DNA from: a virus
Lineage: Duplodnaviria > Caudoviricetes
Virus record (IMG/VR): IMGVR_UViG_3300011116_000623
Location: 1 to 57,194 of that record
DNA: 57,194 bases
Direction: 5' to 3' (one strand)
Part shown: piece by piece, positions 1 through 12,511 of the stretch
Layout: the number at the start of each line of letters is the position of its first letter
How positions within the stretch are numbered: position 1 is the first letter of the stretch
Made by a program: the position numbers and the translations under genes
The notes under the pieces: generated by a model
What the model saw: the letters and a program-made list of their open reading frames with translations, nothing else
What the model was told of the DNA's origin: nothing
The model's database searches: none

Positions 1-538
1 CCACATAGATAGAGCTCTAACTCCTATATCCCCCCGCTTTTAAACATCTCTCTAATAGCCATTTAAAGCCTTTTAAAGCATATTCTAGAGTATATCTATA
101 GATAGATTGACTATTAATTTATCTCTGAATACTATCAATATACTTAAATGAATATACTCATGTAATTGGGCGACCTATTTAAACTCTCCATAATCCTCCA
201 CTTTGCCCCACATATCCCCATATGTACCATATTTGACCCATATTGTCAATAGATTTGCATATAAAAGGCTTATATACATACTATAAATAGTTCAGGGATT
301 CTAGAATATAGCTCGTAAACGAGCAGATTTGCCCACAATTCCTGGAGATTTTCCTAGATAATATATGAATATACTTAGATAAGTATCCTATTTTATTAAA
401 TTCTTCTAAATCTTTCAGGGATTTTAAACATATGGTCGTAAAGGAGAAATTCTGCCCCCAGAAAATATATACAAATGGGACATATACCACAATATGTACA
501 TATAGTACAAATTGGACATATGTCCCAGATGATTGATA

Positions 539-724
539 TTACTTAGATATATATGATATGGTTACTTCTCCACAAAGGGAGTTGTAGCGTTCTTGTTCTG
601 CCGCCTTCTTTGATTTTTCTATCTTCTTCCACTTACGGAAGGAGGCTAGGGCGTAATTCTTGTCCCGTCCCTGAGCTGTCTTCCATTTCTTTGGCTTGCG
701 CTGAGCTGCGCCTACTGGTTTCAT
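539..724 (-). CDS. small basic hypothetical protein (about 61 aa, MKPVGAAQRK...)
   Basis: ORF track gives 539..778. The ATG at 724 overlaps the upstream gene's TAA (TAATG coupling), so it is the more likely start. Confidence 0.55.
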   Translation of the reverse strand: MKPVGAAQRKPKKWKTAQGRDKNYALASFRKWKKIEKSKKAAEQERYNSLCGEVTISYISK

Positions 725-1122
725 TATAGAACCGCCTGGACCTGATTGAATGGGTCCCTGTACTCCTCGTGCAGCCATGAGTACTTGCCTGAATCTGGGG
801 CGGGTTCTGGTAGAGCCTTGATTATATCCTTAGTAGACTTAGGGAGATTAAGATTATTCCACTTATATTTTTTAGATAGGATACTTAGATTAGTATTGAG
901 TTCATTAGATAAGAACAAACCTTCTGATGTTACTCCTTGTTCAAAGTCTGCCTTATATCTTTTGCTATTAAACTTTAAGATATGAGCCAATACTTCGACT
1001 ATCCTATCAATTGTATAATGAGGTTGATTAGATAAGAGATGTGCTAGTATGGCTGGATTAAACCAATGGTCCTCCGCCACATTAGCAAGGTCATCTGCTA
1101 ACTTCTGTTCTCTAGATTTCAT
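724..1122 (-). CDS. hypothetical phage protein
   Basis: 132-aa ORF. Upstream TTGACC-N17-TATAAT promoter (1140-1168) and AGGCGG leader. Confidence 0.7.
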   Translation of the reverse strand: MKSREQKLADDLANVAEDHWFNPAILAHLLSNQPHYTIDRIVEVLAHILKFNSKRYKADFEQGVTSEGLFLSNELNTNLSILSKKYKWNNLNLPKSTKDIIKALPEPAPDSGKYSWLHEEYRDPFNQVQAVL

Positions 1123-1139
1123 ATCCGCCTTTCTAAATC

Positions 1140-1168
1140 ATTATACCAAACAGGGTGGGGAAGGTCAA
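1140..1168 (-). promoter_or_regulatory. housekeeping-sigma-type promoter
   Basis: Minus strand reads TTGACC-N17-TATAAT. Confidence 0.65.
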
Positions 1169-1201
1169 TACCGCTTGGCCCTTGACCCTCCCCAAGATTA
1201 G

Positions 1202-1348
1202 TTACTTAGACTTTACTGGAGTTTCTTTGGTAAACTGTACGCCATTCTTAACAGCTTCTGAGATAGCTTGATTTGCAGCTCCAGAGAAACGTCCACGACG
1301 GCCCACAGTAATGCCCTTGCTTTTTAGGTATTCACGTTTTGTAGTCAT
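1202..1348 (-). CDS. Lsr2-like DNA-binding domain protein, 48 aa (not in ORF track)
   Basis: Translated by hand: MTTKREYLKSKGITVGRRGRFSGAANQAISEAVKNGVQFTKETPVKSK. Resembles the Lsr2 C-terminal R-E-aromatic...G..V..RGR AT-hook motif. SD GAAAGGA at 1354-1360. Confidence 0.65.
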   Translation of the reverse strand: MTTKREYLKSKGITVGRRGRFSGAANQAISEAVKNGVQFTKETPVKSK

Positions 1349-1459
1349 TTTGATCCTTTCATGATCATTTTCATTTTATCATATTTTCGGGGTTTTGTAA
1401 ATAGTTCCGTAAACGAGCTTTGTTGCCCCTATAACCCTGCCGCAAAAAGCGGCAGAATA

Positions 1460-1819
1460 TTATTCTTCTGTATCATCTAACCAAGTATCCTCATCTAAGG
1501 CTACTAGGAAGTTATTATCTATCATCCAATCACGAATAGTTTCTTCAATAATTTCTCCACCAAGATCCATATTCAATCCTAGTTTATCAGTATCTTCCCA
1601 AAACTTATCCCATACTTGTTTAAGGGTAATGCCTTCAGGAACAATCATATCTTCAAATTCACCAGGCTTCTGATAATTTGTGTATATGTCGACAATTATG
1701 TCATATGCCCATAACCACATTAATGAAGGAAATACTGGAAGAGCAGTTATCTTTAATCTAATATCCTCTAGATCTTTAAATACATCATCTCTACGAGTTG
1801 CTTCTTGTAAATCAACCAC
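1460..1819 (-). CDS. acidic hypothetical protein
   Basis: 119-aa ORF in a coupled leftward run. GC hairpin CTGCCGC-AAAAA-GCGGCAG just downstream (1437-1455). Confidence 0.7.
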   Translation of the reverse strand: MVDLQEATRRDDVFKDLEDIRLKITALPVFPSLMWLWAYDIIVDIYTNYQKPGEFEDMIVPEGITLKQVWDKFWEDTDKLGLNMDLGGEIIEETIRDWMIDNNFLVALDEDTWLDDTEE

Positions 1820-2078
1820 GGGCTTTGCTCCTATCAGATATAGCGAATGATAAATTATACGTCATAGCATAGATTTCTGTCAAGGCGTCCATATAGCCTT
1901 GAATATACTGTTTTGTATCGCCTTCAGATATCCCCAATAGAACTTTTTCACATTCATACATTCTATTTTTTAAATGTCCATGCATGATGTCTGTGCCTGA
2001 TTCTCCCATGTCAACAAGTTTTTGAAGACGGGGGTCAAGTTTACTTAAAGATTCATAATCTAAATGCTCATAATTCAT
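1812..2078 (-). CDS. hypothetical protein
   Basis: 88-aa ORF with upstream GGAGG and overlaps to its neighbours. Confidence 0.65.
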   Translation of the reverse strand: MNYEHLDYESLSKLDPRLQKLVDMGESGTDIMHGHLKNRMYECEKVLLGISEGDTKQYIQGYMDALTEIYAMTYNLSFAISDRSKARG

Positions 2079-2229
2079 CTGCTACCTCCAATAGATGTTT
2101 AACTGCATATATCTGTCCTGGTATATCTACTACATTAATAGATTCAGGATTGTCTTGTAAGTCTTGATTAAGACTAATTAAGTATATCTTCATATATTCA
2201 ATTAGTTTATCCGTAGAATGTATTTTCAT
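2068..2229 (-). CDS. small hypothetical protein (53 aa, not in track)
   Basis: Hand-read ORF MKIHSTDKLIEYMK...VADEL fills the gap between coupled genes. Confidence 0.45.
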   Translation of the reverse strand: MKIHSTDKLIEYMKIYLISLNQDLQDNPESINVVDIPGQIYAVKHLLEVADEL

Positions 2230-2374
2230 CTATATACCCTTCTGCTAGTAGGCCTTCGAAGAAATCCCATATGGTTAATAGACCTTGCTTAACGCTAGGG
2301 TCGGTGGCGGAATCAATAGCAACAGTTAAAGCATTACCAAAGTTCTGTATATCTTTATATGTATATCCTAACAT
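2207..2374 (-). CDS. small hypothetical protein (55 aa, not in track)
   Basis: Hand-read ORF MLGYTYKDIQ...FYG with GAGG upstream, overlapping both neighbours. Confidence 0.5.
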   Translation of the reverse strand: MLGYTYKDIQNFGNALTVAIDSATDPSVKQGLLTIWDFFEGLLAEGYIDENTFYG

Positions 2375-2607
2375 TCTATGTAGTATTCCTCTCCTGGCTC
2401 AACCTTCCAATATTCATTAAACCTTTGTTTGACGGAATCATCAGAGCACATATTAGCCATTTCATAATCGGCAATAAACATACCCTCATCTAAATGTCCT
2501 GTTATCCAAGAATCAAATAAATCCTCAGATATCTCTTGAACAACTGCGTCTGTAATATGCTTAGGCATATCATCAAACATGCTAGGTTGATCATTTGAAT
2601 AACCCAT
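2368..2607 (-). CDS. acidic hypothetical protein
   Basis: 79-aa ORF. SD CGAAAGGA and TGTCAG-N10-TATAAT promoter directly upstream. Confidence 0.7.
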   Translation of the reverse strand: MGYSNDQPSMFDDMPKHITDAVVQEISEDLFDSWITGHLDEGMFIADYEMANMCSDDSVKQRFNEYWKVEPGEEYYIEC

Positions 2608-2914
2608 ATATATCCTTTCGCTAGGACCTTAATTATATAACATGCCACTGACATTGTATATAGGATATAGGTGTGTTTCACACCACATGTCCAAGCTGTG
2701 AGATTTCCAGGAAATATATTTGACATCCGTAAAAGAGATATGCTACCCTCAGCTTTTGTGGGCAAAAAGAAACCCCCGTATTAGCTACGGGGGATGGGGA
2801 AGGAAGGGCTGCTAGGACCTCAACGAAAGGAAAAGCCTGCGTTACTTAGCAACTGGACTAGTTGCACCCTTCATAAAATAGGCACCCTGGGCCTGGTAAT
2901 ATTATATCACAATC

Positions 2915-3319
2915 CTAGGTGAGCAGTTTTTCAAACGCATACTTCTCACAGAATGCTGTCAGGTCCATAGTAAATATTGCTTCGTTTCTCATACCTAGAA
3001 CTTTATTTTCTAAATTACGGTGGTCGTCTTGCTCATGCAATGAGAAGGTCTGCTGTTGCCAATTAATAACAGCAATCTTGTGCTCGTTATCTCCAATTGA
3101 ATTTACTTGAAGACCCCAGCCTGTTTCCATATTCCACTGGTCGCCAATCAAATGACTGATAGCAATACGTGTGGCATATGATTCATCATTCCAACGTGGA
3201 CGGGCAGCAATCACAGCATCTGCTAATCTTCCTAGCATATTGTGTCCAGCCCAATGTCCGTATAAACAAATTGTATCGCCTGCTCCATCTACGAATACAA
3301 AGTTTGCTCTGTCTCCCAT
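2915..3319 (-). CDS. hypothetical phage protein (MGDRANF..., LYGHWAG motif)
   Basis: 134-aa ORF with AGGCGG leader. Confidence 0.75.
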   Translation of the reverse strand: MGDRANFVFVDGAGDTICLYGHWAGHNMLGRLADAVIAARPRWNDESYATRIAISHLIGDQWNMETGWGLQVNSIGDNEHKIAVINWQQQTFSLHEQDDHRNLENKVLGMRNEAIFTMDLTAFCEKYAFEKLLT

Positions 3320-3322
3320 ATT

Positions 3323-3520
3323 TTATTCCGCCTTTTCTAGTTGAGGTAGTGCTTCTTCCTTTTTGTCTAATTCTATCATTTCATAGGCCCATTTGTCTAG
3401 GATCTCTGAATTCTTATTTCTGTGATGTCCACAGAATGCTAACTCGCCAGATGTGCTACGAGCCAACCATTTAGCCTGAGCTGAACATTGATCACATTTA
3501 ATCCAGGGTAGGTCTGTCAT
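3323..3520 (-). CDS. small putative Zn-binding protein
   Basis: CDQC...FCGHH metal-ligand pattern. Confidence 0.65.
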   Translation of the reverse strand: MTDLPWIKCDQCSAQAKWLARSTSGELAFCGHHRNKNSEILDKWAYEMIELDKKEEALPQLEKAE

Positions 3521-3663
3521 ATCTTATTGCTCTCAATCATGTCAGCCAGCCTATCAAGAAGCCAGTTATCGATATCGTTAATATCAATCTCCCGTAACTT
3601 CTCCATCATTTCCTCACGGGCAAACTTATACCCATCTTGGAATCCATCCTTATACTCAGACAT
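3517..3663 (-). CDS. small hypothetical protein (48 aa, not in track)
   Basis: Hand-read ORF MSEYKDGFQDGYKFARE...NKI with coupled start/stop overlaps. Confidence 0.55.
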   Translation of the reverse strand: MSEYKDGFQDGYKFAREEMMEKLREIDINDIDNWLLDRLADMIESNKI

Positions 3664-3904
3664 TCAACATCCTATCATATCTGTATGCCAATTCATTATC
3701 AGCATAACTGGTCTCAATTAGAACTTTAAGTTGGTGCTTAGATATTAATCTGCTCACCTTCTCAATGTTACCTGTTCCAATCTCGAAAGTCAAGGCACTG
3801 TAGTCATAATTACTTGGGTCAAGTCCTCCAACCTCAGCGTCCCATACAGAAAACTGGAACGCCTTGGTTGAATTTGCTTTTAACTTATAATACATTAGTT
3901 CCAA
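3656..3904 (-). CDS. hypothetical protein
   Basis: 82-aa ORF. The true start may be the ATG near 3895. Confidence 0.6.
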   Translation of the reverse strand: MELMYYKLKANSTKAFQFSVWDAEVGGLDPSNYDYSALTFEIGTGNIEKVSRLISKHQLKVLIETSYADNELAYRYDRMLNV

Positions 3905-4353
3905 TCCACATCTGTATCTTCAATTAACCATGAGTTAATATCAACTGCGGATGTATTGCTATCTAATGATAGTTCATCACCTAGATAATAATGAGCGTCA
4001 AAGTCTTCAACCTCATCAAGTGGAACATCTATTGTTACTTCAAATGAAATAGTTCCAGTTACAGTAACTTGCTTAGATGGATTAATACCAAAGTATTCGC
4101 ATAGTAAGCGAATTACATCATCTTTGTCATAGTTAGGATTTACCCATTCTATAATTTGCTCTTCAAGACCATCTACCTTATTACGCAGGCTATAGTATTC
4201 AGAGGTACGTTGTCTAGCATTTTCTAGTACCCATTCTAAATCTGTTACTTTTGTAATTGGGAATGTAACAGTGTCTCCATCAATAACCTTGTATTGTACA
4301 AGGGCATTAGGATTATAGGTATCAGGTGTTACGGTTGCTCCATATGTTTCCAT
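3895..4353 (-). CDS. hypothetical protein
   Basis: 152-aa ORF with SD ACGAAAGGA. Confidence 0.75.
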   Translation of the reverse strand: METYGATVTPDTYNPNALVQYKVIDGDTVTFPITKVTDLEWVLENARQRTSEYYSLRNKVDGLEEQIIEWVNPNYDKDDVIRLLCEYFGINPSKQVTVTGTISFEVTIDVPLDEVEDFDAHYYLGDELSLDSNTSAVDINSWLIEDTDVDWN

Positions 4354-4354
4354 G

Positions 4355-5113
4355 TTAGTTTCCTTTCGTTGTGGTAGTGGCTAATTGTACACCATGGGTC
4401 TGACATTGCTTCATTGCTTCCTCATCCTGCCAAGAACCTTGATTACATTCTGAGCAGAATTCACCGCAACCATTATCACAATACTCAATACAATCATAAG
4501 ATTGGCAAGCATAGCAACGATTTTCATATTCTAAGTTTTCTTTAACCTCACCACGGACAATCTCATATTCTCCGCCCCAACCTTGCTCCTCTTCAAATTC
4601 AAGGGTAAGCAAGCAGTTAGGAACAAGATTACTTAGTTTAGTTAATATAGTTACGGCAGGCGACCATGCAGTATTATATTTATATACAAGCCAGTTGTCA
4701 TCACCTTCTGATTCATATTCAAGTAGTTCAGTATCAGGATACTTATCACCGTCTGATACAGCAACATCCCATTTGGTTCCCCAATTAGAATTATTCCATG
4801 AATACCAATCTTTTTGGGTTTTGGCATGTTCAACTGATTTAGCAAACCAGTCAGGATCATTTGTATTTATTTTACTATGATCAGGTTGCTGAACATATTC
4901 CTCCATTGTAATACCATCCTCTAATGGAGAATGTATATTCCAAAATGCAAAGACAGGATTAGAATAAATGGATTCAGTTACTTCCATTTTATTAGTTTCC
5001 ATATTCCAACTGTCATGCCATACAGTAAATGGCTCATTTAGTTTATCTTTAATAAAGTCTATCTCAGACTTAGGACCTTGAATTGTCAAGGTGTTGTATA
5101 CCCAGTTAGGCAT
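4355..5113 (-). CDS. YubB/DUF1281-like ferredoxin-fold protein with C-terminal Cys cluster
   Basis: Family motifs MPNW.., DWY.W...WGTKWD, TAWSP and EE.G..G. Start moved to 5113 because of SD GAAAGGA at 5119-5125. Confidence 0.7.
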   Translation of the reverse strand: MPNWVYNTLTIQGPKSEIDFIKDKLNEPFTVWHDSWNMETNKMEVTESIYSNPVFAFWNIHSPLEDGITMEEYVQQPDHSKINTNDPDWFAKSVEHAKTQKDWYSWNNSNWGTKWDVAVSDGDKYPDTELLEYESEGDDNWLVYKYNTAWSPAVTILTKLSNLVPNCLLTLEFEEEQGWGGEYEIVRGEVKENLEYENRCYACQSYDCIEYCDNGCGEFCSECNQGSWQDEEAMKQCQTHGVQLATTTTKGN

Positions 5114-5271
5114 TTCATTCCTTTCGTTGAATGTCGCAATTGTAGCAGAGTCGAATGACATTATCAAGGATTCTTGGGGTTTTATTTATAGATGCCGTAA
5201 GAGAGCTAGGCTGCCTTCAGCCCTGGGGGCAGCTGGGCCCTATGTGGGGCCCTTTCGGGCCCCGTTAAGGA

Positions 5272-6279
5272 TTAGGCTAGAGCCTTAACCATCTTGAGAA
5301 TTTTATTTTTCTCAGCGGTAATTACAGGATCAAATCCTGAAGCAGCAGCCATTAGCGAATTAGTATTACCAGTTTTAGATGAACGGTAATAATCTAAACG
5401 CTCAGTTAATGCATTAAACGCACCCCAAGCGGTACCCTTAATCATTGAGTTAGTTGGTGAGTTATGATAAAGATCATCAATAACCACAACTTTGTTTTCC
5501 CATACAGTTAAAGCAGCCTTAGTTGCTTGTTCTGGCTTAGGATAAATTGTGCGAATCAAATCTGAAAATTGCTTATCAGTAATTGATTGCTGGAATAATT
5601 CGTTAGCCTGCTTTTGAAATTCATCTGCATATGCAAATGTTAATCCCAATGCTTGACGGGCTTGCACAATTCTGCCTTCGGCAGTTTGTGTGTGGCGAAT
5701 TTTAAATGATTGCTTAGCGGTACGCATTGCAACATTTAGAGTGTTTTGACATACTACACGAACAGGCGTGATCGCTGCCTGAACAGCAACAGAGCCATCA
5801 TGTGATGTCCATACAATTAAATACAACTTAGTTTTATCGTTAACCCCTTGTGGGTCTAATACGATCTCTTTAGGAATATCTAATGAGCCGAATACAATCT
5901 TGCCCTTCTTTAAAGAGCCAGCAGACTCCCATTTAGCAGAATTAGAATCTAGTACATTATCAGCAAATGCAAATAACTCTTCATTCTGAACGGTTTTGTA
6001 TCGCTTGCCAACTACTGACAAAACATCAGTGCCTTGGTCAAATGGATTATCACGAATCACAAAGAAATTATCTGATGTATTTCTCCATGTAGTAGGGATA
6101 TGATCTGCAACATCCGATAAGCGAACATTCCAGTTATTTAACTTTGCTTCTTCAAGCATTGTTTGAGTTGACACATTCTCATCTTGTGAGAATATGCGAT
6201 TAGCAAGATTATGCCAAGCAGGAGCACCACGCAATGCGAATGCCACTTGACCATCTTGCTCTTCTAGATTATGAGCCAT
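5272..6279 (-). CDS. DUF932 / TIGR03299-like phage-plasmid protein
   Basis: Motifs PAWHNL, Y..VQN, ESAGSL..G, SHDGS, TPVRVVCQNTL and IRHT. Start MAHNLE at 6279 behind SD CGAAAGGA. Confidence 0.85.
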   Translation of the reverse strand: MAHNLEEQDGQVAFALRGAPAWHNLANRIFSQDENVSTQTMLEEAKLNNWNVRLSDVADHIPTTWRNTSDNFFVIRDNPFDQGTDVLSVVGKRYKTVQNEELFAFADNVLDSNSAKWESAGSLKKGKIVFGSLDIPKEIVLDPQGVNDKTKLYLIVWTSHDGSVAVQAAITPVRVVCQNTLNVAMRTAKQSFKIRHTQTAEGRIVQARQALGLTFAYADEFQKQANELFQQSITDKQFSDLIRTIYPKPEQATKAALTVWENKVVVIDDLYHNSPTNSMIKGTAWGAFNALTERLDYYRSSKTGNTNSLMAAASGFDPVITAEKNKILKMVKALA

Positions 6280-6358
6280 TTTATCCTTTCGTTTAAGTTG
6301 CCTTATTCTAGCATACTTGACTGACATTTGACAAGATTAGCGTCATTCTTTTCAGGAG

Positions 6359-6390
6359 TTTTCCACAGCTAGCCGTAAGGCTGTGGATAA
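6359..6390. promoter_or_regulatory. inverted pair of DnaA boxes
   Basis: TTTTCCACA (6359-6367) and TGTGGATAA (6382-6390) match TTWTNCACA, 14 bp apart. Confidence 0.6.
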
Positions 6391-6413
6391 CCCCCCACCG
6401 TTGGGGGCGGCGG

Positions 6414-6635
6414 TTACTTAATTAGTCTCCTGGAATCCATTGGATAAAATGCTGCAGCGGTTTTCTTTTTCTTTATTTGATCATATACATATGCTTTAAC
6501 GTTGCCTTTAAATTTTGGCAAGTAAGAGAATAATATTTTAGAAAGAGCTTCTCTCTCTACATTCTCATCTGAATAAATAGTTAAATCGTTTGACTTTATT
6601 TCGTCATACATTTCGATACGGTATCTACTCCGCAT
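6414..6635 (-). CDS. hypothetical protein
   Basis: 73-aa ORF with SD AAAGGA. Confidence 0.65.
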   Translation of the reverse strand: MRSRYRIEMYDEIKSNDLTIYSDENVEREALSKILFSYLPKFKGNVKAYVYDQIKKKKTAAAFYPMDSRRLIK

Positions 6636-6672
6636 TTTGTTCCTTTGTTAGTAGGGATAACTATTTTAACAT

Positions 6673-6698
6673 AGGGGGCTAGATTTTGTCTAGCCCCC
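6673..6698. terminator. GC-rich hairpin, likely terminator overlapping a promoter
   Basis: GGGGGCTAGA-TTTTG-TCTAGCCCCC between two leftward ORFs. Confidence 0.55.
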
Positions 6699-6704
6699 AG
6701 TTAA

Positions 6705-7127
6705 TTACAAGTATCTTGCGATAGCGTTGTAAGTTGAGGTAGAAACTACTTCCTCATCTGTCATCTTGAGGATACGAATAGCATTTTCCAATTCCTCTTT
6801 CATCTCACGATAAGTATGAGTATGGATTACCTCATAATCACGCTCAGGCTCTTTTGGAAAATCTGTTCCATCTGTTGATAGGTCAAAATCAACATTAAGA
6901 GAGTTAGACCATTGACGATAATTAGTGCGTAGGTTTTCTGCTTTGGAAAAGCGGTCAATAGCCCACTTACCAAGTTCCTTCTGCCACTTTTCATGTGCCT
7001 TCTTGTATTTGGCTTCTTTTTCGTCTTGCTTAATATAGTCAGCCTCTACTTGTGCTAACTTTGTTTCTAAGGCTTTAATAACCTTAGCAGTAGCGATTTT
7101 TACGCTGATGGGTTTGCTTCTTGCCAT
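6705..7127 (-). CDS. hypothetical coiled-coil phage protein
   Basis: 140-aa ORF with SD ACGAAAGGA. Confidence 0.75.
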   Translation of the reverse strand: MARSKPISVKIATAKVIKALETKLAQVEADYIKQDEKEAKYKKAHEKWQKELGKWAIDRFSKAENLRTNYRQWSNSLNVDFDLSTDGTDFPKEPERDYEVIHTHTYREMKEELENAIRILKMTDEEVVSTSTYNAIARYL

Positions 7128-7197
7128 TTGTTTCCTTTCGTTAGGTTTATTGGTTGAGCAGTTTTAGTTGTCATGCTCAGGACATTTAGCGTGGTGG

Positions 7198-7356
7198 CTA
7201 ATTCTTTGTAGATACGCTTGTCCAGCGTTCTTTACCATCTACATCTAGCAAAACTCTAGCAGTTCCGCTAGGGTGATTATCTATTGCTTTGATAATCCCT
7301 GTAATACCGCTTTGGGTAGTTGTGTAGGCTTTGCCTACTTCTAGTGTTGTTGTCAT
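7198..7356 (-). CDS. small hypothetical protein (52 aa, not in track)
   Basis: Hand-read ORF MTTTLEVGKAYTTTQSG...WTSVSTKN. SD ACGAAAGGA and promoter 7381-7402. Confidence 0.65.
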   Translation of the reverse strand: MTTTLEVGKAYTTTQSGITGIIKAIDNHPSGTARVLLDVDGKERWTSVSTKN

Positions 7357-7403
7357 TTGTTTCCTTTCGTTTAGGGTTGTATTATAGCACCTGCTACTGA
7401 CAA

Positions 7404-7673
7404 TTAGTAGTCGGTTTCAGGTAGCCACGCTTCTAGGTGATGCGCTTCTATAAGGGCGGATGCGGGTGCTTGATCTCTGCCCTTCCATAGTACGCCTTCA
7501 GGTAGCACGATCATCTTATCGTAGTCCTCCTCATAGTAGGCATCAATAGCCTCTATACAAGGTTGCACCATTGAGGCGGGAACGGGTGGGTAATGATTAC
7601 TTTGTAGGTGTATTAGGATTGCTTGATCTAAGTCAAAACTCTCAGCCAAGTCTAGTGCTGTGTTATATCCCAT
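7404..7673 (-). CDS. hypothetical phage protein (HLQSNHYPPVP motif)
   Basis: 89-aa ORF with GAGGAG SD. Confidence 0.7.
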   Translation of the reverse strand: MGYNTALDLAESFDLDQAILIHLQSNHYPPVPASMVQPCIEAIDAYYEEDYDKMIVLPEGVLWKGRDQAPASALIEAHHLEAWLPETDY

Positions 7674-7949
7674 TTATTCTAACTCCTCTAGTATAGTTTC
7701 TGTTAAGTTATCCATTTCGTTAATTGTATCAATAAGGTCTGACATCTGCGCCTCTGTCAATAAGACTTTGGTAGTTAGGTCTGCCACCTTACTTGCTAAT
7801 GCTACCGAATACATATAGATATATTTAGGGAATTGGCTATCTGTAAGTTCATTTCTACGGGTGTGTAGTTCCCCCGCTAAGCCCATAATTTCCTCATCAA
7901 ATATAGCTTTTTTAGTAGCGTCTGCTACTGCCACCGCTGTTGATAACAT
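7674..7949 (-). CDS. hypothetical protein
   Basis: 91-aa ORF coupled to its neighbours. Confidence 0.65.
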   Translation of the reverse strand: MLSTAVAVADATKKAIFDEEIMGLAGELHTRRNELTDSQFPKYIYMYSVALASKVADLTTKVLLTEAQMSDLIDTINEMDNLTETILEELE

Positions 7950-8155
7950 TATTCCACCACTTTTAATAGAGCGAAAGAATTGTTAGCATTTACCTCATCT
8001 AAAATTGGTTTTAATTTAGGTGCGATTATTGTTTTTAGCATGCCTTCTAGCATAGCAATTTGGCTTTCTTTAGACAAGGCAAGTAGTCGCTTTGCTGTTG
8101 GATCGTTCTCGTCCAGTTCTGTAATAAACTTTAGAGAGTGTTCGATTTGTTTCAT
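7949..8155 (-). CDS. hypothetical protein
   Basis: Start moved to MKQIEH (8155), behind SD ACGAAAGGA and promoter 8181-8202. Confidence 0.65.
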   Translation of the reverse strand: MKQIEHSLKFITELDENDPTAKRLLALSKESQIAMLEGMLKTIIAPKLKPILDEVNANNSFALLKVVE

Positions 8156-8388
8156 TTTTTCCTTTCGTTTGATTAGTGGAATTATATCAGGGCTAACTGA
8201 CATTATTTGCAACACGCCCATATTTTCTAGGGTGATTTATATCACACCCGTAAGGACACGCCCGACCCCGCACACATGTGGGCGCAGCTTCGGCGCTATT
8301 TAAATATAAAATAAAAAAATAATATAAAGGGGGCCGCAATTATCCCAGACAATAGGGCCCCAGTTATTTCACCTAACGTAGTTGCCAT

Positions 8389-9108
8389 TTATTTTTTAGT
8401 AGCAGAAAATCTAATATCTGCTTTTCCATAAACACACAATCCGCAAGATACGCAAGCAGAACCATTAGTAGAAATTAATGGAATGCTTTTATTATTTTCG
8501 GGACATTTAGCGCCAGGCTTACCAATTAATTCTTTCATAGTATTTTCGGTAACGGCAAAAGTCTTTCCTAAATATGCTAATCTAATTTTAGTACCAGTCT
8601 TACGCAGATCATGCGCTATATCCTTATTCTCATCATCCGTAGAATAATAAAGAGATAGATTAGCAATGTTGTCTAGAATAAGCGCAGCAGACTTAACTCG
8701 TGTGTATACCCAAAATTGGATATCTGAATTTTGCAAGATTACATACTGCCATGCACGTGCATAGGTATCATTAAAAAAATCTCCGTCCCAGTGGATACGG
8801 AATAATAATTTAGCATTTTTCTTTTCACAATCTTTTCTAAAATCATTAATCATATTTTCTAATAGGTCTACCATAGTGGGCTCATCAGCGTCTTTTAATA
8901 AATTCCAATTGTGCATGAGCACGTCTCTTACACCTTTATAAACTTTTTCTAATTTGCCAGCATAACACACGCTTTCGCATATACTAGTAGCGCCAGGACA
9001 TGAGAATGCCTTGCCTGCAGGCAGGCCGAATGTATTAGCAATAGCAGGCGTCTTGCCATTTTTAGACACAAGATTAGTAACCTTGCGATCATTAGATCTT
9101 TTTAACAT
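8389..9108 (-). CDS. Gp88-like protein (Cys-rich, radical-SAM-like), probably leaderless
   Basis: Motifs FGLPAG..SCPGAT..C...CYA, FRIH.DGDF, FWVYTR and CVSCGLC. ATG 9108 lies 7 nt after the -10 hexamer with no SD. Confidence 0.7.
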   Translation of the reverse strand: MLKRSNDRKVTNLVSKNGKTPAIANTFGLPAGKAFSCPGATSICESVCYAGKLEKVYKGVRDVLMHNWNLLKDADEPTMVDLLENMINDFRKDCEKKNAKLLFRIHWDGDFFNDTYARAWQYVILQNSDIQFWVYTRVKSAALILDNIANLSLYYSTDDENKDIAHDLRKTGTKIRLAYLGKTFAVTENTMKELIGKPGAKCPENNKSIPLISTNGSACVSCGLCVYGKADIRFSATKK

Positions 9109-9137
9109 GGGGATAATTATAGCAGGCGAGGGTGACA

Positions 9138-9293
9138 TTATAAGTCACCCATCTCAGCATCCGCCATGCGTGTCATAGCCCAATCTTGAGCTAAATCACG
9201 ATCATATACGGCCATGCCTTCCGTAGTATAGCCACGGGCACAAATTGTGCAAATAGAGTGATTAGTACAGTAGCATGAATTGATATCGTTCAT
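9138..9293 (-). CDS. small Cys-rich hypothetical protein
   Basis: Start MNDINSCYC behind SD CGAAAGG and promoter 9320-9341. Confidence 0.55.
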   Translation of the reverse strand: MNDINSCYCTNHSICTICARGYTTEGMAVYDRDLAQDWAMTRMADAEMGDL

Positions 9294-9445
9294 TAGTTGA
9301 CCTTTCGTTAAGTAATGGAATACTAACAGATCACACTGACATTTACAAATCGACACGCCGCAGATTTCGGGGGATTTTTTTAATGTGGCGTAAATCACAA
9401 AATGCCCCCACAGCATATGTGGGCGCCGAACATTTGTTCTAATAA

Positions 9446-9574
9446 TTAATTAGAAGCTTTTTTATGTTTTATTTTTCTAGTATATTTTTTTTTATTGCGA
9501 ATAGGTTGCGCCGCATTTGATCGGCGCAATTCCTGAATACGTTTTACTTTATTTAGAAGAGAAGTTTGGAACAT
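9446..9574 (-). CDS. small very basic peptide (…RRSNAAQPIRNKKKYTRKIKHK)
   Basis: 3' part of track ORF 9446..9631. Start position is uncertain. Confidence 0.45.
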   Translation of the reverse strand: MFQTSLLNKVKRIQELRRSNAAQPIRNKKKYTRKIKHKKASN

Positions 9575-9740
9575 AATAACCGCTTGCATCATAGAATTTT
9601 TTAGCATCAAACCTCGGATTATCTTTAGCAAACATCATTGCAAAATCTACAACTGTTTTAGAAAATAAAGATGGATGAATTTTATCGCTAAGATTTTTCA
9701 TAATCTCAGCGGTAGCAATATAATCTTTGCGACTTTTCAT
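9549..9740 (-). CDS. small phage protein (SRKDY...DNPRFD..KF motif)
   Basis: 63-aa ORF coupled to the upstream ORF. Confidence 0.65.
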   Translation of the reverse strand: MKSRKDYIATAEIMKNLSDKIHPSLFSKTVVDFAMMFAKDNPRFDAKKFYDASGYYVPNFSSK

Positions 9741-9937
9741 TTAGCAGACACCAATCCAATCTGATTAAAGTTTTTAGTATACATTTTGCCATTAGGCATT
9801 TCTAAATTGTAGGTTGCGTATTCATTAGCAAACCCGTGATCTTTACATCTAGCAAAAGCCTCAAACGCCAATAAAGCGTCAGAGAATTGGTGTGTGAATT
9901 CCAATTTTCCGTCATAGTAAGTAAATAATTTATACAT
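9737..9937 (-). CDS. hypothetical protein
   Basis: Track ORF 9737..9958. ATG 9937 behind GTAGGT is the more likely start. Confidence 0.55.
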   Translation of the reverse strand: MYKLFTYYDGKLEFTHQFSDALLAFEAFARCKDHGFANEYATYNLEMPNGKMYTKNFNQIGLVSAK

Positions 9938-10236
9938 TAAGCACCTACGCAATCGCAAGTTTTTACATCAAATTCAGGTTTTAATCCCCAATAGATATAT
10001 CCACGCCCACCACAATCAGCACAATCTAAAATTACGCTGTCCCGCATTTTTTGTTTATTCATTTTTTACCTTTCGTTTTGTTAATGGAATTGTAGCATAG
10101 GGGTCTGACAATTAGTCAAACGCCCCTTCATTAAATAATCCTAACTCTAATTCTAATAAAGTTTCTGCGGGAATATCTGAGAGATCTAGCCAGCCAGCAC
10201 CCTCAGAGTCCATATGAAAAACCTCAATATATCCCA

Positions 10237-10431
10237 CTAATCACCAACTTTCACGCCAATAGTTCGCACCTTGCGGTCTGAACCAATTTCCACTAAATAA
10301 CTTTCGATATTCATTCCGTAGAATGTAGCACGAGGATCTTTTTCGGCAGAAACAATTTCGCCTTCCAAAGTATTTGAGCGATAGTGCTTACCCACTAGCA
10401 GGTTTTCTATTGTGTATATATTTGCAGACAT
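10237..10431 (-). CDS. hypothetical protein
   Basis: 64-aa ORF with SD GAAGG and promoter 10463-10484. Confidence 0.6.
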   Translation of the reverse strand: MSANIYTIENLLVGKHYRSNTLEGEIVSAEKDPRATFYGMNIESYLVEIGSDRKVRTIGVKVGD

Positions 10432-10553
10432 TGCAACCTTCTTTCTTTTTGGTTATGCCGTTATTATACTAGACCCCACCGACAATTTGCATATTACTTG
10501 TGAGTAATTCCAGATATTGAGACGCTCAATCTATGTGTGCTTAATCACATTAG

Positions 10554-10627
10554 TTATCCACGACACGCCCGAAGTTTTCCACAGCTTTCCAGGGTTTATC
10601 CACATCTGTGCGTAAACCTGTGGATAA
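10554..10627. promoter_or_regulatory. cluster of four DnaA-box-like 9-mers
   Basis: TTATCCACG 10554, TTTTCCACA 10575, TTATCCACA 10596 and TGTGGATAA 10619. Confidence 0.7.
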
Positions 10628-10687
10628 CCGCCCTCACCAGCTTGTGGGCGCCGCCGCCTTTGTCAAGGCGACACGCCGTCTATTCTT

Positions 10688-10703
10688 TGTGAGGTTGCTC
10701 ACA
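10688..10703. promoter_or_regulatory. CRP/GlxR-type site TGTGA-N6-TCACA (perfect; one of seven related sites)
   Basis: TGTGAGGTTGCTCACA. Second perfect copy at 11276-11291. Imperfect copies at 2672, 8231, 9384, 10534 and 11636. Confidence 0.6.
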
Positions 10704-11267
10704 TACGCATTTGGTATATGCGCCTGCGTTTAACCTGCCACATTTAGGGCAGGTATAAAATCCGCTAGGGTTAGCCATTGTTTATTTTCTCCATTGTCTT
10801 ATTGACCATGCTAAAGAAATACCGCCAAATAATAACCATGTAGGTATCTCTATCGCAATACCACTAGGATATAAGTTGCTAATATATAGCGCAAAATATT
10901 CTAAGTCTATAGTTAATTCCATTTACTCTGCCCCTTCCCAATCTAGTGTTAATTCATTTTCGATTAACTCATCAAGGCTAACGATATCCTCGTCAAACTC
11001 TGCTTCGGCATTTACTTTGTCTAACGCTTCTAATTCGTCTAAGTGGCGATAAGCGTCTGCCACATCTAGTTGAATAGTGTCCCATTTAGTCATCATTAGT
11101 TGTTGTCCTCGCTTTCATCAATTCCGAACATGTCGCCTAATAATTGGTTAGCCAATTTTAGAGCGTCTATTGCGCTTTGTGTGTTATCCATTTTCTTACC
11201 TTCTTTCGTTTTTGTTATGGTGAAACCTTATCACACCTAACCGACAATCGGCAAGGCGACACACCCT

Positions 11268-11456
11268 TTAGAGGGTGTGAGATACCTCACATGCGGTATC
11301 GCATCTAGGCACATCTGCCATGATTAAGTTTAGCAGACCTACACGCTCAGACTTAGTAAGTCTAAGGCGGGCAACAGTATCAGGCTTGATACCTCCATGA
11401 TTATATTCGAACAATAGTTCGTTATAGATTAAGTCTAGGTTAGACATGTTAGACAT
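11268..11456 (-). CDS. hypothetical protein, first ORF of the leftward block
   Basis: 62-aa ORF with SD GAAGGGA. Confidence 0.55.
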   Translation of the reverse strand: MSNMSNLDLIYNELLFEYNHGGIKPDTVARLRLTKSERVGLLNLIMADVPRCDTACEVSHTL

Positions 11457-11491
11457 TTATTTATCCCTTCTAAGATAATTTTGTTAAGAGC

Positions 11492-11536
11492 GATTATTTG
11501 CTAGGCTCACCTTATCGGATTATTTGCTAGGCTCAC
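11492..11536. repeat. 19-bp perfect direct repeat inside an inverted repeat
   Basis: GATTATTTGCTAGGCTCAC at 11492-11510 and 11518-11536, closed by AGAGCG/CGCTCT. Confidence 0.9.
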
Positions 11537-11791
11537 GCTCTAATTCTTTATTTTGTTATACCTTAATCATATAAGGGGGGACTGACATTTTGCCACTCAC
11601 AAATCGGACATGTCGGACATTTTGAAAATTAATTGTGTGAGTTAAGACACATTAGCCCCATATATGGTCGCTCTATTAGGACAAATCGGACATTTTTAAA
11701 TGCTGCATCATACAAAATAAAATCCTATTAACATTTTCATAGATCTAAAATACTAGTCGACTAAAATATTAAATGATATACTAGATTAAAT

Positions 11792-11864
11792 TGGGGATTA
11801 GCTCAGCAGGCAGAGCGGGAAGCTGTTAACTTCTAGGTCGTAAGTTCGAATCTTACATCTCCAG
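11792..11864 (+). tRNA. tRNA-Asn (GTT)
   Basis: Acceptor TGGGGAT/ATCTCCA with G discriminator. D arm GCTC/GAGC. Anticodon arm GGAAG-CTGTTAA-CTTCT. T loop GTTCGAATC. CCA not encoded. Confidence 0.93.
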
Positions 11865-11910
11865 CAATCATCTCTTGACCTAACAATTTTTCATATGCTA
11901 CAATTCTAGT

Positions 11911-12050
11911 CTTGGACAGTTTTCGGAGATGATATCAAGGGTTTAAACTCCAAGTTCGACAATGACGGAAGTGTTGTCTTTGGCTTATATATCCAATATA
12001 AGTTCAACCGATGAACGGCAGCCTTATAAGCTGGACTGTTTCGGGGTCTC
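11911..12050 (+). ncRNA. candidate structured ncRNA
   Basis: Preceded by TTGACC-N18-TACAAT (11875-11904). No ORF in the track. Several stems, including a GGAA tetraloop hairpin. Confidence 0.45.
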
Positions 12051-12226
12051 TTAAATTAAATTTTAAGGGTATAGGGTTTGTATTCTCTAAATCTGGAAGT
12101 ATCCACTAATATAATAAATAATATATATACTCAAAAATAAAAATTCTATTAACATTTTGTTAAATCTAATATTCTAGTCAACTAAGATATTTATCATCAT
12201 AATAACTTTAATTATATACTTGGTCT

Positions 12227-12511
12227 ATGAAGTCAGAGAAGTCTGAAGTCCGAAGGACCAAGGCATATCTGTCTCGATATATTCAAGATTTAAAAAGCAG
12301 GACTCCATGTATGGATTGTAAGGAATCATATCCATACTACGTTATGGATTTCGATCATGTGCGGGGGCGGAAACATAAAAACGTAATGGAACTAATTCCT
12401 ACCTTGTCCAAAAAGAAAATCGATGAAGAGATAGCTAAATGTGAAATCGTTTGCTCAAATTGTCATCGAGTTCGGACACATAGTAGAAAGAGTCGGAAGA
12501 ATGAAAAGTAG
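12227..12511 (+). CDS. HNH endonuclease (Zn-binding), probably leaderless
   Basis: CMDC...DFDH...CSNCHRVRT. TATACT lies 6 nt before the ATG. Confidence 0.85.
   Translation: MKSEKSEVRRTKAYLSRYIQDLKSRTPCMDCKESYPYYVMDFDHVRGRKHKNVMELIPTLSKKKIDEEIAKCEIVCSNCHRVRTHSRKSRKNEK

Follow-up and report, generated by a model that had tools for sequence, protein, structure and literature searches.

A PafBC-type promoter motif recurs along the putative early gene arm of freshwater actinophages

Background

Sigma adaptation by the WYL-domain activator PafBC is, to our knowledge, known only as a chromosomal DNA-damage response. The older consensus for PafBC-dependent (RecA-NDp) promoters carries gtg after TGTCR. 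PMC8635444 gives the in vivo motif as tGTCgg(N10)tA(N3)T, with its 5′ part, the "−26 element", at −28 to −23, its 3′ part serving as the SigA −10, and no −35; the GTC triplet is described there as contacted by residues R46 and R50 of PafB and as strictly conserved in actinobacterial recA promoters. PafBC is constitutively present and is activated when single-stranded DNA (ssDNA) binds its WYL domains (PMC11804915, PMC10693628), the RecA-NDp motif extends to further actinobacteria (PMC8223512), and a primer in PMC5087735 provides a Streptomyces coelicolor example in which TGTCAGTGG...TACGGT precedes a leaderless ATG. Here we compare with this class a repeated motif, TGTC(A/G)N-N10-TANNNT, in the leftward gene arm of an IMG/VR virus record (IMGVR_UViG_3300011116_000623), the whole of which was analysed and is called the window (57,194 bp, GC ~37%, 53% complete by CheckV). 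The original prediction for this DNA held that eleven such promoters place the early region under the host's PafBC.

Results

The window has 11 copies of the strict form of the motif, TGTCRG-N10-TANNNT, where 0.89 would be expected (the largest count in a shuffle was 4, and 0 of 100 shuffles reached 11), and all 11 sites lie on the minus strand between 2632 and 11587. The looser form, TGTCR-N11-TANNNT, gave 14 matches against 4.89 expected, again a number reached in 0 of 100 shuffles; 13 of these fall on the minus strand in the same interval, and the lone plus-strand match, at 1878-1899, looks like chance. By core, the 13 minus-strand sites are nine TGTCAG, two TGTCGG, one TGTCAC (9137) and one TGTCAT (5160). 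The predicted class of leftward promoters is therefore real in its enrichment, strand and region, whereas its predicted count of eleven, split as seven, two and two, has to be raised to 13. A ribosome site of the GAAAGG/GAAGG type (AACGAAAGGA-type) and an ATG follow within ~15-35 nt downstream of 11 of the 13 sites, much as had been claimed for most of them; the exceptions are the site at 9137, where the ATG stands 7 nt past the −10 and the message would be leaderless, and the site at 7744, which lies inside an open reading frame (ORF).

A weight matrix was built from the sites of related phages only, with the window excluded, and applied at a threshold of 12 bits with 20 shuffles as the control. 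Twelve sites in the window exceeded the threshold, all on the minus strand from 2653 to 11587, with zero elsewhere in the 57 kb, compared to 0.3 sites per shuffle and a top shuffle score of 15.1. This bears out the earlier statement that the class is missing from the structural region. The two variant sites, together with the matrix scan, show that other cores are not in use. The promoters of the form TTGCC-N~18-TANNNT that had been assigned to the structural region did not survive, since their 15 matches are at the chance level of 14.4 expected, and this class was rejected.

All 13 sites are on the minus strand and are given here in the order of the arm. The first, at 11566-11587 (TGTCAG-N10-TATGAT, 27.8 bits), is preceded by three ATGTCCGA repeats, and the second, at 11225-11246 (TGTCGG-N10-TAAGGT), has a weak −10 and is the one that scores under 12 bits. 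These are followed by sites at 10463-10484 (TGTCGGTGG..TATAAT, 24.5 bits), 10089-10110 (TGTCAGACC..TGcTACAAT, 30.7 bits) and 9320-9341 (TGTCAGTG..TGtTAGTAT, 25.5 bits). The TGTCAC variant at 9116-9137 (TGcTATAAT, 18.4 bits) is the leaderless site in front of the GP88-family gene. Next come 8181-8202 (TGTCAGTT..TGaTATAAT, 26.1 bits); 7723-7744 (TGTCAGACC..TGaTACAAT, 20.4 bits), located within the ORF at 7674-7949 and upstream of the gene for an acidic protein of 89 amino acids (aa); 7381-7402 (TGTCAGTAG..TGcTATAAT, 28.0 bits); and 6305-6326 (TGTCAGTC..TGcTAGAAT, 27.7 bits), upstream of the DUF932 gene. The TGTCAT variant at 5139-5160 (TGcTACAAT, 23.8 bits) and the sites at 4384-4405 (TGTCAGACC..TACAAT, 23.8 bits) and 2632-2653 (TGTCAGTGG..TATAAT, 29.0 bits) complete the series.

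The DUF932 protein of the window was used to fetch related loci from IMG/VR, yielding 41, and 33 of these (L004-L036, 64-92% identity) each contain 4-18 motif copies, of which almost all are on the gene strand. The same motif thus recurs in more than 30 related contigs. Over 313 unique sites from the loci and the window, the consensus is AA-TGTC-(A 219/G 94)-G-T(249)-(G/C)(G/C)...T.T-G(267)-c-TA-t-A-A-T, with A at position 5 in 70% of sites and G in 30%, an extended −10 (TGn) in 267 of the 313 (85%), and further conservation of the flanking A-1, A-2 and T+7. TGTC was fixed by the search pattern itself, hence the invariance of GTC is partly built in. There is no −35 consensus in these sites, every position from −30 to −3 relative to TGTC holding at most 0.35 bit. 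A spacing of 10 on the gene strand was found at 400 sites, against no more than 34 for any other spacing from 6 to 15, with 2 on the opposite strand. This fixed register, together with the missing −35, argues that the element is recognised together with RNA polymerase and is not a free operator.

Over 317 sites, the spacing between the −10 and the first long ORF has two modes, the main one at 23-31 nt and a leaderless class of 29 sites at 6-7 nt; a ribosome-site-like word is present at 266 of the 317. Leaderless messages are common in actinobacteria. Since an ATG begins 6-7 nt past the −10 at those 29 sites, TANNNT can be taken as the working −10. At PafBC-dependent promoters transcription starts 6-8 nt past the −10, and these ATG positions would be in indirect agreement with such starts. 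The clearest case of a leaderless gene is the GP88 gene (9106-9137 in the window), which is leaderless in nearly all relatives, its ATG lying 7 nt, rarely 6, past the −10.

In its TGTC(A/G)G core, exact 10-nt spacing, TANNNT −10 and lack of a −35, the element agrees with the PafBC motif, as originally proposed, and the GTC core favours PafBC over WYL activators as a whole, as SiwR uses GGA. The phage was also expected to lack a WYL activator of its own. No WYL domain (PF13280) was found in any of 10 records (G000-G005 and G007-G010, that is, the window and nine relatives, four of them complete), with the same profile matching 7 of 14 control genomes. Likewise, no sigma region 4 scored above the cut-off in the window or its relatives, and no helix-turn-helix (HTH) or other DNA-binding domain of Pfam was detected in the ORFs searched, 38 from the early arm of the window and its surroundings and 10 from G001. 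AsiA (PF09010) and MotCF (PF09158) gave no match at E ≤ 0.1 in five records (G000, G001, G002, G009 and G007), a weak negative, as the controls were also silent. Because an element identical to that of PafBC is present in actinophages that encode no WYL protein, host PafBC is the best candidate for its reader.

In three complete relatives of about 105-112 kb the motif is confined to a single gene arm of ~10-12 kb. All 14 sites of G001 (110,973 bp) lie on one strand at 76.2-85.8 kb, 14 of the 16 sites of G002 (104,393 bp) lie at 80.7-92.5 kb, and the 15 sites of G009 (112,370 bp) are in the equivalent arm, spanning the assembly junction, and mostly read TGTCGGTGG or TGTCGGTAGG. Across eight core proteins (4,233 columns), G009 and G001 have 32-55% identity, which makes them as distant as G001 is from the Streptomyces phages Coruscant and Wakanda (43-67%). 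A five-taxon tree, unrooted for want of an outgroup, joined G001 with G002 and Coruscant with Wakanda, each at 100/100, and placed G009 on a long branch. The early arms of G001 and G009 have only ~5 of some 40 ORFs in common. Another record, G007, in which 12 of 59 ORFs are common to any reference, with no large structural ORFs among them, carries 8 sites, five of them with a good −10. The motif is conserved across deep divergence. A scan of IMG/VR with a stricter motif returned at least 120 stretches; among the 80 matches listed, most share ORFs with the clade and have 4-16 sites each, and those loci that share no ORF have one site each.

With the reversed pattern as the control, motif counts in cultured actinophages were 3 in Coruscant (control 5), 1 in Wakanda, 3 in Mandalore (control 4) and 1 in mycobacteriophage XianYue. 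In the homologous arm of Mandalore, a Streptomyces phage of the same virus family, a conserved upstream element is followed by a −35-like TTGTCA, a 17-nt spacer and TAGACT, and the arm of XianYue is rich in CTTGACAT. In Mandalore locus L056 (51578-64276) we also noted 14 copies of GCGCCCGGCGCACAAGATG...TACA.CTATTCTTGTCA-N17-TAGACT, each after a hairpin and all on one strand. The kin that infect Streptomyces and Mycobacterium use ordinary −35/−10 early promoters, and for this reason the early promoters of this family are considered host-type; those other promoters of the phage studied here that were inspected by eye have ordinary −35 elements. The type of early promoter therefore tracks habitat or host and not phage gene content, as expected of a host-determined promoter.

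On protein identity and gene order, the phage is best described as a low-GC freshwater relative of Streptomyces phages and as Stanwilliamsviridae-like. From 14.6 kb on, the plus strand of the window encodes a glycosyltransferase, a ribonucleotide reductase, large tail and virion proteins and a portal, and then a capsid protease, a major capsid protein, a head-tail adaptor, a major tail protein and the start of a tape measure. This order, from glycosyltransferase and ribonucleotide reductase through portal, protease and capsid to tape measure, is the same in Coruscant and Wakanda (Stanwilliamsviridae). The capsid protease matched 137 cultured phage records, all below 60% identity (127 Streptomyces, 9 Rhodococcus and 1 Alicyclobacillus), the best at 44-46% across 96% of the protein. 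Megablast searches with 10-kb and 20-kb portions of the window found no nucleotide-level relative among cultured phages. Of the words sampled from the window, more than half are present in sequencing runs from several studies labelled riverine, lake water or other aquatic metagenomes.

WhiB, which is taken as an actinophage marker (PMC10202952, PMC6802176), is encoded in four of five clade records (G001, G002 with three copies, G003 and G004), including both complete ones; among 14 control genomes its profile (PF02467) matched only in Corynebacterium. The window itself is without WhiB because the WhiB gene of G001 falls in the part that the window lacks. At 88547-88784, in its early arm, G002 has one WhiB gene (72-aa frame, E 5e-20) whose start is 25 nt past a motif promoter, and the WhiB common to G002 and the Streptomyces phages sits elsewhere in the genome. 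Kinship with Streptomyces phages, together with WhiB in the complete relatives, suggests that the host is an actinobacterium. Neither Mycobacterium smegmatis nor Corynebacterium glutamicum would be that host, given the 37% GC of the window and its freshwater origin. Scanning genome contigs with the DUF932 protein gave a single match, a Pedobacter locus at 36% identity; the host search also returned plasmid matches in Streptomyces and Mycobacterium.

The leftward arm (1-11587, minus strand) holds ~35 small genes and corresponds to 76.2-88.3 kb of G001, where the block from 76.2 to ~89 kb is the only long one with plus-strand genes, the genes outside it lying on the opposite strand. The window must hold nearly the whole arm, as its left end corresponds to G001 position 88.3 kb. 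Among the genes of the arm, all on the minus strand, are the GP88-family gene (8389-9108; PF17338, E 1.9e-54), with homologues in 283 Mycobacterium and 99 Streptomyces phage records, the DUF932 gene (5272-6279; PF06067, E 5.7e-58), and ORFs matching DUF1281_C, an Api92-like ferredoxin-like domain (4355-5113, E 1e-6), and DUF7455 (3323-3520, E 1e-12). Coruscant has an exact direct terminal repeat of 12,244 bp (1-12244 = 121454-133697) containing homologues of GP88 and DUF932, and it is on this basis that the arm is called early; in other large phages, such as SPO1 and T5, the terminal-repeat region houses the first-expressed host-takeover genes. The arm thus plausibly consists of early genes. 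None of the runs listed as sharing words with the window was labelled RNA, and two runs presumed to be RNA yielded short contigs only, without starts or ends. What is labelled a direct terminal repeat ("DTR") in G001 and G002 is a 127-bp overlap, and in G009 one of 219 bp, which looks like assembly overlap; a long repeat may have been collapsed.

Several other features in and beside the arm were recorded. The word ATGTCCGA occurs at 11611, 11620 and 11693 on the minus strand, just upstream of the first early promoter, and is kept in G001 (76142, 76223); G002 has 5 forward copies, four of them within the early arm, and Coruscant has 8 forward and 0 reverse copies, all inside the terminal repeats (812-11189 and its repeat). 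It may be a family-wide regulatory site. Words resembling GGCGTGTCG number 6 at no more than 1 mismatch on the minus strand from 8210 to 11265, against 1.78 expected (2 of 100 shuffles reached 6), and several lie 10-60 nt upstream of motif promoters. A non-coding gap at 10554-10627 contains 4 DnaA-box-like words in 74 bp, two of them perfect TTATCCACA in opposite orientation, and two further such words lie at 6359-6390; window-wide these words are not enriched (19, 20.8 expected). In the divergent control region, a tRNA-Asn(GTT) gene at 11792-11865 on the plus strand is flanked by two AT-rich direct repeats of ~50 bp, seen by eye at ~11.70-11.76 and 12.14-12.20 kb, and is followed by a canonical-looking rightward promoter, TTGACC-N18-TACAAT.

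Few ORFs are common to G001, G002 and G009 but not to Coruscant and Wakanda, and these are uncharacterised; examples are G001 1510-1989, 8283-8606 and 103130-103699, along with three early ORFs, one of which encodes the acidic 89-aa protein (7404-7673 in the window, minus strand; NHYPPVP...HHL..WLPE). This protein forms a conserved family, for which 44 sequences were aligned. Of 117 loci with four or more motifs, 87 encode it, as do all five motif-bearing lineages examined, G007 included; it was not found in Coruscant or Wakanda. With ~16 acidic and 3 basic residues, its net charge is about −13, which makes it implausible as a DNA reader, and it could be a modulator. Its predicted structure is confident (pLDDT 91.5) and has no solved relative (best Foldseek E 1.5), only uncharacterised viral look-alikes; a profile search against PDB sequences returned nothing.

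Discussion

We consider it somewhat probable, on the basis of sequence, that the 13 sites are promoters of an early arm read by host RNA polymerase with the primary sigma factor and a host activator of the PafBC type. In each promoter, a −10 for the housekeeping sigma (TAtAAT, mostly extended by TGn) would be paired with a −26 element, AA-TGTC(A/G)G-T, that substitutes for the −35. In the manner of sigma adaptation, a PafBC-type activator would take up a position between sigma region 4 and the DNA and recognise the promoter through the GTC triplet. As PafBC is always present and is switched on by ssDNA, the first genes could be transcribed strongly without any factor made by the phage. The ssDNA might come from processing of the entering linear genome, from replication intermediates or from existing damage, such as that caused by ultraviolet (UV) light, and DNA damage could then act as the on-switch of the early genes, as the original prediction had it. 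This supposes that PafBC is the reader, that the host possesses it, that the arm is expressed first and that an activating signal is present. We put forward more tentatively, and with some doubt, the broader proposal that widespread, deeply diverged freshwater actinophages of ~100 kb have replaced the −35 of every host-takeover promoter by the PafBC −26 element, such that the LexA-independent ssDNA alarm of the host fires ~14 promoters at once, with the acidic 89-aa protein perhaps tuning the circuit, for example via sigma region 4 or PafBC.

Several points weigh against reading by PafBC. The motif is not enriched in Coruscant, Wakanda, Mandalore or XianYue, whose hosts are reported PafBC users, so the strategy is not general. 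The extended −10 seen in 85% of sites might support transcription without an activator, freshwater actinobacteria with streamlined genomes may lack pafBC, and a lytic phage that depended on a stress-activated factor would need an activating signal at infection. We found no description in the literature of phage promoters read by PafBC, and such promoters are not mentioned in PMC12817590 or PMC7771536. The motif, in its TANAAT form, was also sought 66-96 nt before a back-translated RecA peptide in metagenomes, a test to which we give little weight because of its narrowness, since TANAAT, a short leader and a peptide with a serine were all obligatory; the outcome was 6 stretches in 3 groups, a chance-like number given how many recA genes the collection holds. 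The RecA N-termini and GC (32-60%) of these stretches look proteobacterial, SAR11-like or Bacteroidota-like, and one of the matches overlaps a canonical −35 and one a ribosome site. Rafique et al. (2025, ACS Infect Dis; cited in PMC12848934) reportedly link PafBC to mycobacteriophage resistance, and the PafBC regulon tables of Muller et al. (2018) may be informative on prophage genes.

The −26 element could instead be read by another adaptor, either a phage protein outside the known families, which the virion would bring in or other promoters would express, as with MotA/AsiA, or a different host factor, for instance another WYL or HTH activator. We regard this as rather unlikely, though it has several points in its favour. 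Other WYL activators act at −26, as SiwR does via GGA (PMC10693628), and small ORFs absent from the Streptomyces phages are common to the motif-bearing complete genomes. Canonical promoters elsewhere in the phage could come first in time, and the cultured kin with PafBC hosts do not use the motif. However, both the sequence of the PafBC element and its exact register would then be coincidence, and the first promoter of the arm is of the same type as the others, so that it could not be started by any factor that the arm itself encodes. The searches described above returned no WYL, HTH, sigma, AsiA or MotA homologue, and the sole protein that tracks the motif is the strongly acidic one (net charge ~−13) with no solved structural relative.

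Reading by the primary sigma alone is less probable still. Under that explanation the sites would be plain extended −10 promoters, and TGTCRG would be a regulatory element, serving for instance early shut-off by a phage protein, or one that shapes the spacer. The TGn in 267 of 313 sites and a −10 near consensus fit this, since such promoters can work without a −35, and early shut-off through sites within promoters is common in phages. A repressor site, on the other hand, would not need to keep its register to the exact base throughout hundreds of sites and deeply diverged lineages. The element is non-palindromic, no DNA-binding protein was detected by Pfam in the 38 window and 10 G001 ORFs searched, and identity with the PafBC element would be left unexplained. 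Chance or base composition, for which the lone plus-strand match at 1878 might speak, is effectively ruled out by the shuffles (11 sites, 0.89 expected, 0 of 100), the matrix scan, the restriction to one strand and region, the rigid spacing and the conservation of the pattern in more than 30 loci.

If PafBC is indeed the reader, phage infection would be linked to the host's sensing of ssDNA, and UV or other DNA damage would be predicted to alter phage success in lakes. The sites, more than 300 natural promoter variants, would also form a compact resource for dissecting how PafBC recognises DNA, and would offer a sequence signature for assigning uncultured phages to actinobacterial hosts.

Comparison with known systems

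The phage sites resemble PafBC promoters in having TGTC(A/G)G exactly 10 nt before TANNNT, with the GTC triplet, a housekeeping-type −10 and no −35. They differ from them in number and packing (13-15 per genome within ~10 kb), in driving small early genes and not DNA-repair genes, and in being AT-rich, with a TGn extended −10 and a preference for A over G at position 5. The SiwR promoter of M. smegmatis likewise depends on a WYL activator that requires a −26 element, but its triplet is GGA, set within a 19-bp imperfect palindrome (PMC10693628).

Among phages, the early arm of Mandalore is homologous around GP88 and has many repeated promoters, each with a short operon and a hairpin. Its promoters, in contrast, have a −35-like TTGTCA, a 17-nt spacer and (TG)TAGACT, with GCGCCCGGCGCACAAGATG... 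upstream in 14 copies and no N10 geometry, and the 3 motif matches in its 120 kb are at the control level. The takeover modules in the terminal repeats of SPO1 and T5 are also blocks of ~12 kb with many small genes, each group with its own strong early promoter, although SPO1 and T5 use ordinary host-sigma promoters.

The middle promoters of T4, with a MotA box at about −30 and a −10, are similar in being phage promoters whose −35 gives way to an element located between −35 and −10, with an adaptor, here a proposed one, as the link to sigma region 4. The MotA box, however, differs in sequence, the T4 class consists of middle and not first promoters, and T4 encodes its own adaptors, whereas no AsiA or MotCF homologue was found here in a search that had no positive control. 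A parallel between PafBC and sigma appropriation by MotA/AsiA of T4 is itself drawn in PMC8635444. If the proposed reading is correct, these phages would be the first natural viruses seen to borrow a sigma-adaptation activator from the host, as compared to T4, which brings its own MotA/AsiA. The promoter class is already known; its wholesale use by a phage lineage would be new.

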